In this document: positions 25,156-33,744 of the stretch, piece by piece
Layout of the letters: every line of letters begins with the position of its first letter
Position numbering within the stretch: the first letter of the stretch is position 1
From: Ketobacteraceae bacterium
GTDB lineage: Bacteria > Pseudomonadota > Gammaproteobacteria > Pseudomonadales > Ketobacteraceae
Direction of reading: 5' to 3'
DNA length: 64,000 nt
Assembly: GCA_965222725.1 (NCBI GenBank)
Contig: OZ244969.1
Coordinates: 1,111,939 to 1,175,938 of the forward strand
Notes under the pieces: model-generated
The model's input: only the letters and a program-made list of their open reading frames with translations
What the model was told of the DNA's origin: nothing
The model's database searches: none
Translations under genes and position numbers: made by a program

Positions 25156-25536
25156 TTACTGAATCCAGAACCCTGCCACTTTGTCCTGACTTAACACCAT
25201 TTTGTACTGATTGGATGTGTCGGACTTGTCATAACTGACTGTCCATAAATACACATCATAACCCTGCTGTTTAAAACTACCTTCATAGTTAGCGTTGTAG
25301 CCTGCCTTCAGTTGCTTGCCGAAACGCCAGGCCACGTCCTTGAACTGCGCCGGCTTCAGAGCGGCTTTGAACTCGGCCGTGCCATCGGCAACAAACTGCT
25401 CGTAATTGCCGGCTATCAACGCATTGATTTTTTGCTGGAACAGAGTTTGATGGCGAGATGAATCCTCTGCCATGGCAGACAGACTGAATAAAACCAACAG
25501 GGTTAACGCGCTCACCTTCAACAAGTGCATGGTCAT
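25156..25536 (-). CDS. Small secreted protein (signal peptide, 126 aa), last gene of the flotillin-AAA operon
   Basis: N-terminal signal peptide MTMHLLKVSALTLLVLFSLSAMA. It starts 23 nt after the stop of the 1765-aa gene on the same strand. Confidence 0.5.
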   Translation of the reverse strand: MTMHLLKVSALTLLVLFSLSAMAEDSSRHQTLFQQKINALIAGNYEQFVADGTAEFKAALKPAQFKDVAWRFGKQLKAGYNANYEGSFKQQGYDVYLWTVSYDKSDTSNQYKMVLSQDKVAGFWIQ

Positions 25537-25559
25537 TTCCTCCGTTTAAAATTCGCCAG

Positions 25560-28500
25560 TTAATCATTGTCAGCGATTCTTTTTTTGGCAGGCTTCAATT
25601 CGCGGGACAAGGTGTCCAGCTGCTGCGCTACCTTCTTCATATACTCATGGGTTTTCAGGTCCAACCCGATTTTTCCATCCATGGCTTTTACCAGCGGGAA
25701 GATGGAATTCTCCATGGTGGATGCCAATGCCTGCAAAATATTGTCGATGCCCGGGATAGGTTCGCTCACCACCTGAATATCGTAGTGGATCTTGCCAATG
25801 GTGCTGGCAAATTCCTGCAGTGCCCGGTTCACGGAATCGGTGACCTGTTGTTGCGACTTGTCCAGTGAACGTATGGCTTCCACCACCTGCGTGGCCTGTT
25901 CCTGGGCGCGACTGTCTTTGGCATTGCTGGCAAAAATATCCCGTATTACCCGGGTCTGGTCCACCAGGTCGTGGAGCTGTGCTACCACCTTGGTGCCGGC
26001 ATCGGCGCCACTGCCACCAATGGCTTTCTGGCGCTGGAATTCCTTCTTGATATTCTCCCAGCGTTGCTGTTGCTCCGGTGTCAGCGTGCCCCGCAGCTCG
26101 GCGAGCTTCAGCAGGTTTTCTTCGGTGCCTTTGGTAAGCAGCTGGGACTCGCCCTGATAATGATCGTTAATCAGTTGCTGCAATTCCTTGTCTGTCATCA
26201 CCGCTGAAATTTTTTCCGCCATCTTGTTCATGTTGCGATAACTGCCTTGCAACTTGAACGGCGGCTCTGTTCGGTAGGTATCATCCTGCGCAGCAGAATG
26301 GATATATCCCTGGTTTACTTTTAACACCACTTGCTGAATGGCAAACATTTTTTCCAGGGTGGCAATGATTTCGTTGGCTTCCGCCTGGCTGTAAGGGTGG
26401 GAAAATTCCGTATCAGCCACCGCCCGCCCTTTGGCTCTGTCCACAAAGCGGTAAAAGTCATCCATATCCCGTGTCGCCAGCGGTGCCAGTACGGGGTTGG
26501 AAGTCATGCTGTTTTCGATATAACTCAGGGCAAATACTTCATCCATGCCGCTCAGTACATCACCCAGGTTATAAATGTCCGCCCGGTTGGCCAGCATATC
26601 GGGAATGCGGAATACCTCACCGCTTTCCGTATAGGGGTTACCGGCCATTACCACGCAGAATTTTTTACCCCGCAGATCATAGGTTTTGGTTTCGCCCCGC
26701 CACACCCCTTCAATGCGTCGGGTACCGTCACAGAGGGAAATAAACTTCTGCAAAAACTCCGGATTGGTATGCTGGATATCATCCAGATACAGCATGGTGT
26801 TGTTGCCCATTTCAAAGGCCAGGTTCAGCTTTTCCAGTTCCTGGCGTGCCGTGGCATTGGGAGCCTGGGCAGGGTCCAGTGAATCCACCTCGTGGCCAAT
26901 GGAAGGGCAGTTGATTTTCATAAAGATCAGGCCCAGGCGGCTGGCCACATATTCCATCAAGGTGGTTTTACCGTAACCCGGCGGCGAAATCATCATGAGC
27001 AGGCCCATCAGGTCGGTCCGCTTGTTCTCGCCGATGGTACCCATCTGCTTCGCCAGGTTGTCGCCGATAATGGGCAGATAGGATTCGTTGATCAGTTTGT
27101 TGCGCACAAAGGATGTCAGTGGCCGGGGCTTGAACTGATCCAGACGCAGCTTGCGTTTTTCACTGTCGATAATGTCCTGGCGGGCCTGGTGATAATCCAG
27201 ATAACCGGGCACCACTACCTGCTGGTGATGGGTAAGACGCAGCAGAAAGTCATCCAGGCGGGCCTGATATCGGCCGCTTTCGATGCGGGGATGGTTTCCC
27301 AAAAGATCCGACACCTTTACCGACAGATCCAGCTCCCGCTGTTTCAGGCGCAGTTTGTTGCCGGCCACCAGAGTGGCGGCGGCTTCGGGAATAAAAGCGG
27401 CTGCCTGAACCTTCTTGCGATGATTCACATAGGCGCTGAGCCATTCCTGGCAGAATTCAAAGGCACTGACCGGATCATCTTCCGTGTTGCGCAGGTGTTC
27501 TTCAAAGGCCTGCCAGCCATTGGATGCTTTCAGGTCCAGCACGAATTGCTCCTGCAGTGACGCAGCGGCTTTGGCCTGTAAAAACTCGATTTGCGGCCGT
27601 GCAATCTCCCGCACCAGATAAGCGGCACTGCGGGAAACCAGATCCGGTGTGGCCCAGTCTGACACGGCGCTGTAAAAATCTGTCAGCAAGCGTTCGCAGT
27701 CTGCTTCCAGGTTCTGCAGTGCCTTGCCGTTGCCGAAGAGTTCCAGCATTTGCAGTGCGGAACGGGCACTTACCGGCAGACCACTGACCGCTGGATCACG
27801 CTGGGTCTGAGCCCAGAACAACACCGCCAAAGAGCGACATTCGGGATCATAGCGCAGCAGATCTGCATTCTGGTATACCGGTAACAGTGCCTTCAGAATC
27901 AGAGTGGCATCATGATCATGAATGCCGCGCTCGTAGCCTTCCTTATAGCGGGGGCCAGCATATTCTTTTACCAGGCTGGCCAGTGCCTTGTGGTCCAGCA
28001 ACGCATGGGCCAGTGTTTCCATGGAAAGCTCATTGGCCTGTGCTTCCGCATCCTTCAACAGGGAATACACGAGGTATTCGGCACGGTAGACACGGTCGGA
28101 TTCGGAAATCAGCGCCATATTCCAGTAAGCCCGGGTGCGCTCAATGGTGTCATTCACCACCGGCTCGTAAAACTCGGTGCCGGACAAATGAAAATACAGA
28201 TTGTTCCGCCGGGGGATAATGGTCAGGTCCAGTTCCTGGGTATTCACGCTGAACTTGTGTTTGGGCCCCAGCTTGATGACGTTGCCGCCTTCTTCGTAGA
28301 TTTCCGATTTATCGCGTAAACCTCTAACCGCCTGATCCTTGCTGGCTTTGAACTGGGCATCCACTTCATCAGCTTTTACCGCATCGTCAAGATCGCGCAA
28401 CTGCTGGCTCAGATCGCGGATTTTTTCTACCAGCGGGTCCGAGGCGAAAAAGCTGTTTAATTCCTTGTCATCGTTAATGCGGGTGGTGCGACGTTTGATA

Positions 28501-33040: not shown

Positions 33041-33090
33041 TATCAGTTCCTCTTTGATGATGAAGGTGTTTTGGTGTTGGTATTAATTGG

Positions 33091-33744
33091 TTATTCGGGT
33101 TCTACCCAGTAGGCATTGCTGCCTTCGATTTTTTCCACGATCAGAACCTTGTCGCCCCGTTTCAGGCCGTTTTCCGCTTTGCTGCGGATACGGACAATAA
33201 TGTCCGCACCATCTATGGCGATATTGGCTTCGCCAAAGCGCTCATCCACACGGGTGCTTTTTACGGTGCAGCTGCGACCGATAAACACTTTTTTAACGGA
33301 AGGGCTGTTCAGGGCGCGAAACAGGGGGCGCAACGGTTTGATCAGCGTTGCCGTTATGGGTATAGAGACAGCGACGGCACCAAAGATCACCACAAGGCCG
33401 ATCAGCGCATTCAGCAGGGTGCTGTCGCCCCAGAAGAAAAAGAAATGTACCACCATGAAAGTCAGCACCCAGGCACTCAGGGTGAGCACAGTAATCACCA
33501 CCGTCAGGGGCACCCCGCTCAAGCCCAGGGTCACCATCAGGCCGGCAAAGCCTTCCAGGTCAAAATCGGCGTCAGCGTCCAGGTCAATATCCAGATCCAG
33601 CACATCGATATCCACCATTCCGATAATGGCGAACAGCCAGTAAAGGCACATAAAGCCCAGCAGGCCGGTGAATACGATGGTTGGGAAACTGAAAATGTTA
33701 CTGAAGAAAGCTTCCATATCTTGTGTTGTCTCCATGCAGGACAT
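33091..33744 (-). CDS. NfeD/YqiJ-like inner membrane protein with a C-terminal OB-fold (flotillin partner)
   Basis: Multi-TM N-terminus, an acidic DIDVLDLDIDLDADADFD stretch and a C-terminal NfeD-type OB-fold (GRSCTVKSTRVD..GDKVLIVEKIEG..WVEP). Directly upstream of the flotillin gene, as in E. coli yqiJK. Confidence 0.7.
   Translation of the reverse strand: MSCMETTQDMEAFFSNIFSFPTIVFTGLLGFMCLYWLFAIIGMVDIDVLDLDIDLDADADFDLEGFAGLMVTLGLSGVPLTVVITVLTLSAWVLTFMVVHFFFFWGDSTLLNALIGLVVIFGAVAVSIPITATLIKPLRPLFRALNSPSVKKVFIGRSCTVKSTRVDERFGEANIAIDGADIIVRIRSKAENGLKRGDKVLIVEKIEGSNAYWVEPE

Follow-up and report, generated by a model that had tools for sequence, protein, structure and literature searches.

Genes and control region of the locus

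We have analysed a window of 64,000 nucleotides (64 kb) from a Ketobacteraceae genome, in which four genes in the same direction lie on the minus strand between positions 25156 and 33744 (Table 1), separated by gaps of 50, 104 and 23 nt. This layout had been proposed in an earlier note on the same DNA, and so had the lack of a terminator between the genes, with which a consensus scan agreed (zero minus-strand terminator-like sites within the gaps). To judge by the gaps, the four genes are probably co-transcribed in the source organism.

Table 1. Features of the locus, with positions in the window.
Feature	Position	Strand	Remarks
Small secreted-type protein gene	25536..25156	-	ORF, 126 aa
Giant protein gene	30857..25560	-	ORF, 1765 aa, GTG start
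AAA+ module, residues ~1281-1610	26028..27017	-	
All-helical middle domain, residues ~906-1235	27153..28142	-	Confidently folded in the prediction
Long region predicted helical/coiled coil, residues ~480-855	28293..29420	-	Includes DUF7902 (nt 28809-29054)
Predicted beta-propeller-like domain, residues ~51-420	29598..30707	-	Preceded by an N-terminal helical hairpin
YqiK-type flotillin gene	33040..30962	-	ORF, 692 aa
YqiJ/short-NfeD-like gene	33744..33091	-	ORF, 217 aa as called
Control region	33740..33916	.	Four perfect GACAT-N3-ATGTC palindromes
DUF2170/YjfI (CesT/Tir-like) gene, BacA equivalent	33938..34345	+	Pfam DUF2170, 1.9e-36
PspA/IM30 (ESCRT-III-fold) gene, YjfJ type, BacB equivalent	34357..35055	+	Pfam PspA_IM30, 3.3e-40
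108-aa soluble protein gene	35154..35480	+	ORF
Double zinc-ribbon protein gene, recurrent accessory gene	35477..36007	+	Pfam Zn_ribbon_TFIIB, 9e-9
Rhomboid intramembrane serine protease gene	36014..36586	+	Pfam Rhomboid, 5.6e-19

The first gene encodes a protein that has three TM-like segments and is OB-like in its C-terminal domain. The second encodes a flotillin with one TM-like segment at its N terminus, and its SPFH domain is accompanied by a long coiled coil rich in E, A and K. Neither of them received a Pfam or NCBIfam call. The Pfam Band_7 and Flot models, which do match Escherichia coli YqiK, gave zero matches to this flotillin even at E <= 10, and the NCBIfam FloT model scored 17 bits against a cut-off of 700. 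It was by comparing profiles with the E. coli proteins (hhalign) that the suggested NfeD/SPFH (YqiJ-YqiK) pair could be established: the YqiJ-like family matched YqiJ (probability 91.5%, E 8e-7) and the SPFH region matched YqiK (probability 99.8%, E 9e-28), the latter relationship appearing also in BLASTP (5e-40). Since the homology is visible only through YqiK and is missed by the Pfam models, this flotillin represents a divergent subfamily. The true start of the YqiJ-like gene is probably Met10 (nt 33717), because this methionine is invariant in the homologues and the codons upstream of it overlap an operator palindrome. The last gene of the unit, 23 nt from the giant gene and provided with a GGAGG Shine-Dalgarno motif, encodes the 126-aa protein, which has a signal-peptide-like N terminus.

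On the opposite strand, a DUF2170-PspA dyad (33938-35055) adjoins this unit, and the Pfam calls confirm the divergent PspA/IM30 operon that had been recognised before; the NCBIfam BacA model also matched the DUF2170 protein (5e-15), under its cut-off. A strong terminator-like hairpin (35092-35109) follows the PspA gene, and beyond it lie the 108-aa, zinc-ribbon and rhomboid genes. The rhomboid carries the HxxxN, GASG and His motifs, that is, an intact catalytic set. No Pfam family reached its gathering score with the 108-aa protein (there was one sub-threshold match), and its homologues appeared in three other loci (L018, L063 and L068), only in the sub-lineage with the short-form DUF2170. We considered it as a tandem ribbon-helix-helix repressor and discarded the idea as speculation, given the lack of Pfam support and the presence of the palindromes in a locus (L035) that does not have the gene.

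The control region common to both units is indeed rich in palindromes, as the note had it. The four perfect copies of GACAT-N3-ATGTC (at 33740, 33767, 33868 and 33904) are the only ones in the window, and each of the two mirrored sigma-70-like promoters (TTGACA-17-TAAATT, minus strand; TTGACA-17-TAAGAT, plus strand) is overlain by two of them. Segments 33751-33782 and 33865-33896 form an inverted repeat of 32 nt. A search for sigma-54 -24/-12 elements in the control region found no site. The four palindromes and mirrored promoters between the divergent units support a predicted co-regulation of the flotillin arm with the PspA arm. Elsewhere, the same motif was found upstream of DUF2170/PspA only in loci L018, L035, L063 and L068, which belong to four other genera.

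Architecture of the giant protein

The domain search and the structure models confirmed the architecture that had been described for the 1765-aa protein, namely a beta-rich N-terminal region, a coiled coil and a single AAA_5 P-loop. DUF3686 (PF12458, residues 34-480, E 3e-204), DUF7902 (PF25472, residues 602-683) and AAA_5/AAA (residues 1287-1410; 29 bits for AAA_5, cut-off 22) were all over their Pfam cut-offs. Propeller-like and AAA+ folds are supported by the models, the first of which also places helices at residues 420-499, and the sequence suggests that residues 500-850 are helical as well. Structural matches to the middle domain were looked for and none was found. There is no TM-like segment, pointing to a soluble protein. 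We found more than 5558 homologues, and clustering of the family at 50% identity gives at least 739 clusters. Searches of the available literature on DUF3686 and DUF7902 gave no paper, in keeping with the view that this gene falls outside the well-characterised families.

The AAA+ module has the features of MoxR-type AAA_5 ATPases: the AAA_5 profile, Walker A, Walker B, sensor 1 and an arginine. The Walker A lysine, placed previously at about residue 1297, is exactly K1297 (codon at nt 26967-26969) within an invariant GYGKTT motif. The aspartates of Walker B (LYLD1359D1360, nt 26778-26783) are invariant, and so are N1407 and R1425. Walker B reads DD where DE is the usual form, which might mean slow ATP hydrolysis. 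CbbQ, NorQ, midasin and dynein were among the top structural matches, in scores that do not set the MoxR/midasin/dynein AAA_5 proteins apart from classical-clade AAA proteins; PDB sequence searches with the flotillin, the SPFH profile, the giant protein and the AAA profile gave nothing, or P-loop-only matches. The AAA_5 match is common to the giant protein, MoxR-family AAA+ proteins (CbbQ, NorQ) and midasin/dynein. MoxR systems, however, typically include a VWA partner, and besides the DD Walker B the present cluster differs in having none: no VWA domain was found in any cluster gene here or in loci L001 and L003.

Conservation of the cluster in related genomes

The survey covered 80 genome loci, and its percentages are no tree-wide estimate because these loci are the closest relatives, nearly all Proteobacteria and mostly gamma. 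Among 72 related loci, all but one (71) have YqiJ-like and flotillin-like genes immediately before the giant gene, far beyond chance, and the three genes form an almost invariable triad. The giant gene thus recurrently follows the flotillin/NfeD pair among the relatives, a question that had been raised before, and the conserved adjacency bears out their functional linkage. The triad is kept even in relatives with only 31-35% identity, one with a convergent PspA and one with TelA. DUF2170-PspA (upstream of the triad in 51/71 loci), a rhomboid (34/71) and a zinc ribbon (19/71) are frequent members of the cluster. In a distant locus (L086), PspA with DUF2170 again adjoins the triad, in a different arrangement. 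The proposed coupling to the divergent PspA operon is borne out too: elsewhere all these genes form one co-directional cluster, as in Teredinibacter and Bacterioplanes, and in the source genome its genes are divided between two divergent units that have the same operator palindromes over mirrored promoters. The natural split, with the same operators kept on both units, is independent evidence that both halves work together. Outside the window, a single close relative (1/71, the Ketobacteraceae locus L004) has the 126-aa gene, which therefore is no core component of the system, contrary to what had been assumed; it is a lineage-specific add-on that is probably co-transcribed here.

This linkage bears on the name under which the family travels. 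Pfam ('ATPase involved in DNA repair') and NCBI ('DNA repair ATPase') would make the giant protein a DNA repair ATPase, its adjacency to flotillin being incidental, and PA14_16190 of Pseudomonas aeruginosa is labelled 'ATPase involved in DNA repair' as well. Beyond these inherited names, for which a literature search gave no supporting paper, the findings speak against it: no DNA-binding, nuclease or SMC/Rad50-type domain was found in the protein, its RuvB match is a 48-residue P-loop (14-16 bits, cut-off about 282-299), and the gene is almost always linked to genes for membrane proteins. We have rejected this reading on account of that linkage as hardly credible, and consider the database name misleading for the whole family.

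A phage-defence effector, perhaps within a defence island, was another suggestion of the earlier note. In an anti-phage or abortive-infection system, the large ATPase would act as a sensor coupled to membrane effectors, and a large P-loop protein that combines repeats with coiled coils and is accompanied by membrane proteins might suit this role; so might the PLD nuclease/lipase-type gene found in Pseudomonas and the history of PspA as a 'phage shock' protein. However, PADLOC gave zero matches to the four proteins at E <= 0.01 (the best was mad8, E 0.093 over 27 residues), the flanks contain housekeeping genes (dprA, a tsaC-like gene, hemF, aroE and an M3 peptidase), the cluster of Teredinibacter adjoins dnaA-gyrB and the composition of the locus is not atypical. 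Many genera share the gene order, and identity in the AAA core is 87% between the surveyed lineages, a pattern of purifying, vertical inheritance. The missing PADLOC matches and the housekeeping flanks led us to reject the defence reading, which appears very improbable.

The rhomboid is present in about half of the loci and absent from the rest. In about 31 loci it comes immediately after the giant gene, and in 16 its start overlaps the stop of the giant gene by 4 nt. Assemblies of an SPFH protein, an AAA+ protein and a protease have precedents in HflK/C-FtsH and in the mitochondrial SLP2-PARL-YME1L complex, and by the same token the cluster could serve the quality control of membrane proteins within an SPFH cage, the giant AAA+ protein extracting or unfolding clients to be cleaved by the rhomboid or other hydrolases. 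The intact catalytic motifs of the rhomboid in the window are consistent with this, as are the hydrolases encoded by other accessory genes (PLD in Pseudomonas and an M90 peptidase in Teredinibacter). On the other hand, about half of the loci do without a rhomboid, the giant protein has neither a protease domain nor a TM anchor, and no pore-loop or unfoldase signature was assignable in it. We regard the quality-control reading as unlikely.

Possible function and relation to known systems

On the best explanation, the locus is probably one arm of a nine-gene cluster for inner-membrane stress and remodelling. The most plausible role of the giant protein would be to remodel flotillin/PspA assemblies at the inner membrane with the help of ATP. 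On the cytoplasmic side of this membrane, the YqiJ-like protein and the flotillin would form an SPFH cage or microdomain. Upon membrane stress PspA, an ESCRT-III-fold polymer, would be recruited to the flotillin domain, and its CesT-like partner would handle it. The giant protein, which is soluble, would oligomerise through its AAA+ module, with propeller heads on long helical stalks that grip flotillin and/or PspA assemblies, and would spend ATP for these to be assembled, remodelled or recycled. The rhomboid (in other lineages PLD, TelA or the M90 peptidase) might process membrane clients inside the domain, and a putative repressor acting on GACAT-N3-ATGTC would co-regulate both arms.

A way to look at the role of the ATPase is the comparison with ESCRT-III/Vps4. 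Bacterial PspA/Vipp1 proteins are ESCRT-III homologues, and according to a 2025 review (PMC7619361) bacterial PspA has no known ATPase of the Vps4 type. The giant protein is highly conserved and tied to the flotillin pair and usually to PspA, and is therefore an obvious candidate for a PspA-remodelling ATPase. As in ESCRT-III/Vps4, a polymer-forming ESCRT-III-fold protein is genetically coupled to an AAA+ ATPase, a coupling that by analogy suggests ATP-driven polymer remodelling at the membrane. Taken strictly, the giant protein would be the bacterial counterpart of Vps4, disassembling or recycling PspA polymers, and the flotillin and YqiJ-like protein would be only a membrane platform. The frequent PspA-DUF2170 adjacency (rearranged in the distant locus), the operators common to both arms and the ESCRT-like analogues proposed by Ravi et al. 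2024 (PMC11237479) argue in this direction. Nevertheless, the giant protein is no homologue of Vps4, being about four times longer, with a propeller head, without an N-terminal MIT domain and with an AAA module that the scores do not assign to the classical clade of Vps4, and unlike in ESCRT-III/Vps4 its tightest partner is flotillin and not PspA. We regard the strict version as rather unlikely. A tentative proposal, which we put forward with considerable doubt, is that the giant DUF3686-AAA+ protein, the long-sought remodeller of membrane scaffolds in bacteria, would be analogous to Vps4 in function though not homologous to it, its propeller heads on long stalks serving to disassemble or reshape both flotillin cages and PspA polymers, and that with a translationally coupled rhomboid it would constitute a bacterial counterpart of the SPFH-AAA+-rhomboid assemblies of eukaryotes.

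The cluster can be placed among systems already described. The earlier note was right about the pair, the architecture of the giant protein, the linkage and the coupling to PspA, and wrong about the 126-aa component and the novelty of the system; its defence reading found no support. It also had the pair alone in well-studied organisms, which is true of E. coli and not of P. aeruginosa. The yqiJK genes of E. coli and yuaF-floT of Bacillus subtilis are homologous pairs in which a membrane NfeD-type OB protein precedes the flotillin; in E. coli the pair is alone, whereas here the giant ATPase gene comes next. A paper on Shewanella SO1376/SO1377 deals likewise with a plain YqiJ-YqiK pair and mentions no ATPase. 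The system is not novel because the operon class appears in Ravi et al. 2024 and matches bacABCDEF of P. aeruginosa. The four genes make up one half of a bacterial membrane-stress cluster (Pseudomonas "bac" type) that is in the literature and is as yet poorly understood. Its class combines PspA and a flotillin pair with a giant ATPase and, in many cases, a rhomboid protease.

The bacABCDEF genes ("biofilm-associated cluster", PA3732-PA3727 / PA14_16140-16200) form one transcript in PA14 by RT-PCR, and all Bac proteins were 6-13x up in a bacA mutant (PMC10948618). PA14_16160 is a short NfeD and PA14_16180 is PaFlo3, whose deletion in PA14 had only a ~20% effect on biofilm. Our YqiJ-like protein, flotillin and giant protein are the equivalents of BacC, BacD/PaFlo3 and BacE, respectively; the Pseudomonas BacE is ~55% identical to the giant protein. 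The P. paraeruginosa locus (L034) has five core genes in the order BacA-E (DUF2170, PspA-like, YqiJ-like, PaFlo3, giant). In Pseudomonas they make one co-directional operon ending in the PLD-like BacF, with a sigma-54 promoter proposed for the PA14 operon; with up to 2 mismatches allowed, a search found no sigma-54 site ahead of DUF2170 in the P. paraeruginosa locus. The present cluster differs in being divided between two divergent units, whose promoters are sigma-70-like and whose operators are palindromic, in having no PLD gene, and in the additional 108-aa, zinc-ribbon and rhomboid genes on the PspA arm and the 126-aa secreted protein on the other.

The class of Ravi et al. (PMC11237479) is defined by CesT/Tir-PspA, band-7/flotillin, YqiJ/YuaF and propeller-AAA+ genes, and all four types are present and adjacent here: the DUF2170-PspA dyad, a flotillin with a TM segment, a 3TM protein of the YqiJ/YuaF type and a propeller-AAA+ protein. 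[quoted passage not shown] The article mentions rhomboid 0 times and leaves the operator motif unmentioned, the divergent split is absent from the available part of its description, and a literature search for rhomboid, flotillin and PspA together found no paper. What the window adds to the published description is a natural split into two units with the same operators on both, the definition of an operator motif (GACAT-N3-ATGTC) that several genera have conserved, and figures for the link to a rhomboid protease, in which translational coupling is frequent.

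The flotillin pair and its linkage to the giant AAA+ gene

The four minus-strand ORFs (see table) lie exactly where the earlier note had placed them, separated in order by 50, 104 and 23 nt, and a consensus scan of these gaps showed nothing terminator-like on the minus strand. The proteins of 217 and 692 aa were assigned by neither Pfam nor NCBIfam and were therefore compared directly with those of the E. coli yqiJK region. The 692-aa protein matched E. coli YqiK (BLASTP, 5e-40). In hhalign comparisons its family matched YqiK over the SPFH region (probability 99.8%, E 9e-28) and the family of the 217-aa protein aligned with YqiJ (probability 91.5%, E 8e-7). 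Because of these alignments and the TM-like segments (three in the 217-aa protein, one in the flotillin), the reading of both genes as an NfeD/flotillin pair was right. The standard models that match E. coli YqiK and YqiJ fail on the proteins of the window, which on sequence grounds are divergent subfamilies beyond the reach of such models. The true start of the 217-aa gene is probably Met10 (nt 33717): this residue does not vary among homologues, and an operator palindrome extends into the codons upstream of it.

Between the 126-aa gene and a convergent aroE-like gene, directly 3' of the former's stop codon, inspection by eye showed a GC-rich hairpin of 8 bp with TTTCCTT after it (the consensus scan did not list it). 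It is likely a bidirectional terminator closing the minus-strand operon.

For a survey of other genomes, a profile built on the giant protein was run against a single genome from each species; the best 80 loci were kept and their ORFs searched with the proteins of the window. Counts refer to loci with enough flanking sequence. YqiJ-like and flotillin-like genes were found directly upstream of the giant gene and on the same strand in 71 of 72 loci, so the giant gene does recurrently follow such pairs, as the earlier note had asked. Four distant members of the family, 31-35% identical in the domain of residues 1-500, were also inspected. All four had the flotillin-like gene directly upstream and three the YqiJ-like gene, the contig of the fourth ending there; one carried a Pfam-recognisable Band_7 flotillin together with a convergent PspA, and one had TelA downstream of the giant gene. 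Given the survey count and this persistence in distant members, the triad of YqiJ-like, flotillin-like and giant genes is, judged from gene linkage, ancient and near-obligate, and the original observation of linkage was correct.

The remaining genes were less constant. DUF2170-PspA preceded the pair in 51/71 loci, and a rhomboid (34/71) or a Zn ribbon (19/71) occurred near the giant gene, the rhomboid usually immediately downstream; in 16 loci there is a 4-nt overlap between its start and the stop of the giant gene. The recurrent accessory genes comprise PspA, rhomboid, Zn ribbon, PLD and TelA. The small secreted protein of 126 aa, previously counted as a component of the system, is a local add-on: of the 71 loci just one, in a Ketobacteraceae relative, has a homologue near the giant gene (90% identity).

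Some individual loci deserve mention. The sole exception to the triad among the 72, L022 (a Methyloprofundus MAG), lacks both a flotillin and a YqiJ-like gene in the 10 kb upstream of the giant gene, where an oppositely oriented ORF of 1210 aa is found in their place. In L024 (Saccharospirillaceae) two consecutive flotillin-like ORFs lie upstream of the giant gene, perhaps the product of a frameshift or of a partial duplication. The accessories beside the giant gene in L085, L086, L034 and L001 vary by lineage and are all membrane- or stress-related.

Coordinates of features in the window and in loci (L numbers) fetched from other genomes around homologues of the giant gene
Feature	Sequence	Position	Strand	Basis or remark
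YqiJ-like protein	window	33744..33091	-	ORF, 217 aa
Flotillin-like protein	window	33040..30962	-	ORF, 692 aa
Giant protein	window	30857..25560	-	ORF, 1765 aa, GTG start
Small secreted protein	window	25536..25156	-	ORF, 126 aa
Hairpin	window	25132-25155	-	by eye
DUF2170 protein	window	33938-34345	+	ORF + Pfam
PspA/IM30 protein	window	34357-35055	+	ORF + Pfam
Hairpin	window	35092-35109	+	terminator-like
108-aa protein	window	35154-35480	+	ORF
Double zinc-ribbon protein	window	35477-36007	+	ORF + Pfam
Rhomboid	window	36014-36586	+	ORF + Pfam
GACAT-N3-ATGTC, 13-bp operator-like palindrome	window	33740-33916		perfect sites at 33740, 33767, 33868, 33904
Same palindrome	L018	5354-5398
Same palindrome	L035	5642-5684
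Same palindrome	L063	5522-5562
Same palindrome	L068	5532-5544
1046-aa repeat protein	window	18259-21399	+	motif at 19659, 20193, 20727, 21261
516-aa ORF	window	41780-43330	-
Giant gene	L022	9992-15226
Flotillin-like ORFs	L024	7002-7658; 7733-9802		218 aa; 689 aa
TelA	L085	13001-14221
Convergent PspA	L086	12902-13648
PLD-like hydrolase	L034	15246-15953		probably BacF
M90 peptidase with SEC-C motif	L001	15868-16707

The divergent arm and the control region

Five plus-strand genes diverge from the four minus-strand genes, and the unit exceeds the four genes of the earlier note. No TM-like segment was seen in the PspA, DUF2170 or zinc-ribbon protein. A strong terminator-like hairpin between the PspA and 108-aa genes (GGGAGCC-GCAA-GGCTCCC, then a T run) may attenuate the distal genes, with DUF2170-PspA expressed above the Zn-ribbon and rhomboid genes. 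The 108-aa protein had no Pfam family at or above the gathering score; it reads as two tandem strand-helix-helix units and is confined to a sub-lineage with a short (135-151 aa) DUF2170 (L018, L063, L068).

The palindrome-rich control region proposed to be common to the triad and the PspA arm was confirmed. The divergent region, of 190 nt, holds four perfect GACAT-N3-ATGTC palindromes and there are none elsewhere in the 64-kb window; with at most one mismatch there were 8 matches against 1.8 expected, a number reached by no shuffle. Two sigma-70-like promoters point outwards, each with one palindrome over the -35 hexamer and another just past the -10 hexamer, and over 32 nt one promoter segment repeats the other in inverted form (75% complementarity). 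No sigma-54 site was found in this region. Wherever the perfect palindrome appeared among all fetched loci, DUF2170 or PspA followed immediately; these loci are from Kangiellaceae, Aliikangiella, Gynuella and Thiodiazotropha. The mirrored promoters, together with this placement elsewhere, suggest that the triad was inverted relative to an ancestral single operon and either retained this operator-promoter module or gained a copy of it. Such a common module supports, at the level of sequence, the co-regulation of both arms. The palindrome is conserved in at least five genera, each time just upstream of DUF2170/PspA; L035 has palindromes without DUF2170 and without the 108-aa gene.

Elsewhere in the window, a 1046-aa protein with LRR, RTX nonapeptide and HCBP_related repeats is encoded in a stretch whose GC content is low (0.48) and whose GC skew is high. 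A motif recurs in its gene with an exact period of 534 nt, which indicates long tandem repeats; the protein is probably an adhesin or toxin of the secreted RTX type. A 516-aa ORF had no Pfam match at E <= 1e-4.

Anatomy and possible role of the giant protein

The Pfam search suggested for the giant protein matched DUF3686 (PF12458, residues 34-480, E 3e-204), DUF7902 (PF25472, residues 602-683) and AAA_5/AAA (residues 1287-1410). Neither DUF is named in any paper found by our literature search. A library-wide search with residues 1-500 gave at least 739 clusters at 50% identity; full-length members have about 1590-1930 aa. There is no TM-like segment. The predicted model of residues 850-1765 (pLDDT 75) contains a small beta unit, an all-helical domain (residues ~906-1235, very confident, with no structural match found) and the AAA+ module, and a sequence-profile search with the AAA+ region against solved AAA proteins gave matches confined to the P-loop. 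GYGK1297TT, LYLD1359D1360 (the Walker B is DD), N1407 and R1425 are invariant. Conservation peaks at 87% in the AAA core and falls to 64% in the propeller, 35% in the middle domain and 21-28% in the C-terminal tail. The database name of 'DNA repair' ATPase finds no support, backed neither by the domains nor by the gene context. The phage-defence role that the earlier note had considered is disfavoured by the lack of PADLOC matches, the housekeeping flanks (dprA, Sua5/YrdC-type, hemF, aroE, M3 peptidase) and the strong purifying pattern of conservation.

If the flotillin and the YqiJ-like protein resemble YqiK and YqiJ in topology, their large soluble parts would face the cytoplasm. The most economical model would have four steps. 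These two proteins would assemble at the inner membrane into an SPFH cage or microdomain, to which PspA would be recruited under stress. The giant protein would oligomerise, its propeller heads on long helical stalks binding the flotillin/PspA scaffolds, and spend ATP on their assembly, remodelling or recycling, and the rhomboid or other hydrolases would act on membrane clients. We rank this remodelling of flotillin/PspA scaffolds above a pure Vps4 analogue acting on PspA and above a quality-control machine like HflKC-FtsH, because the near-obligate partner of the giant gene is the flotillin pair (71 of 72 loci) and not PspA (51 of 71).

Relation to published clusters

The proposal of a candidate novel system was not borne out. 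Ravi et al. (2024; PMC11237479) describe an operon class in which CesT/Tir(DUF2170)-PspA is joined by a band-7/flotillin protein, a 3TM YqiJ/YuaF protein, a propeller-AAA+ ATPase and sometimes PLD. They also report shortened flotillin/YqiJ(/AAA+) operons in a range of bacteria and archaea, and they suggest that membranes are remodelled in an ESCRT-like, ATP-dependent manner. The counterpart in P. aeruginosa is the bacABCDEF operon, a single transcript by RT-PCR, in which a bacA mutant raises all Bac proteins 6-13-fold and bacA and bacB mutants have defects in biofilm, rhamnolipid, swarming and virulence (PMC10948618). PA14_16160 is a short NfeD and PA14_16180 the SPFH protein PaFlo3 (PMC13086221). 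In P. paraeruginosa (L034) the order is DUF2170, PspA, YqiJ-like, flotillin-like, giant, PLDc_2, from which we infer that BacC is the YqiJ-like protein, BacD the flotillin, BacE the giant protein and BacF the PLD. What remains of interest is the role of the giant ATPase, the GACAT-N3-ATGTC operator motif and the link to a rhomboid, to which Ravi et al. (2024) make no reference.

Teredinibacter and Bacterioplanes have the same families in one co-directional cluster (DUF2170, PspA, ~230 aa, ~650 aa, giant, rhomboid, (M90 peptidase), Zn ribbon). The cluster of the window shares its core gene families with the bac operon. It is a rearranged-order member of an already published cluster, with the triad inverted relative to the co-directional clusters.
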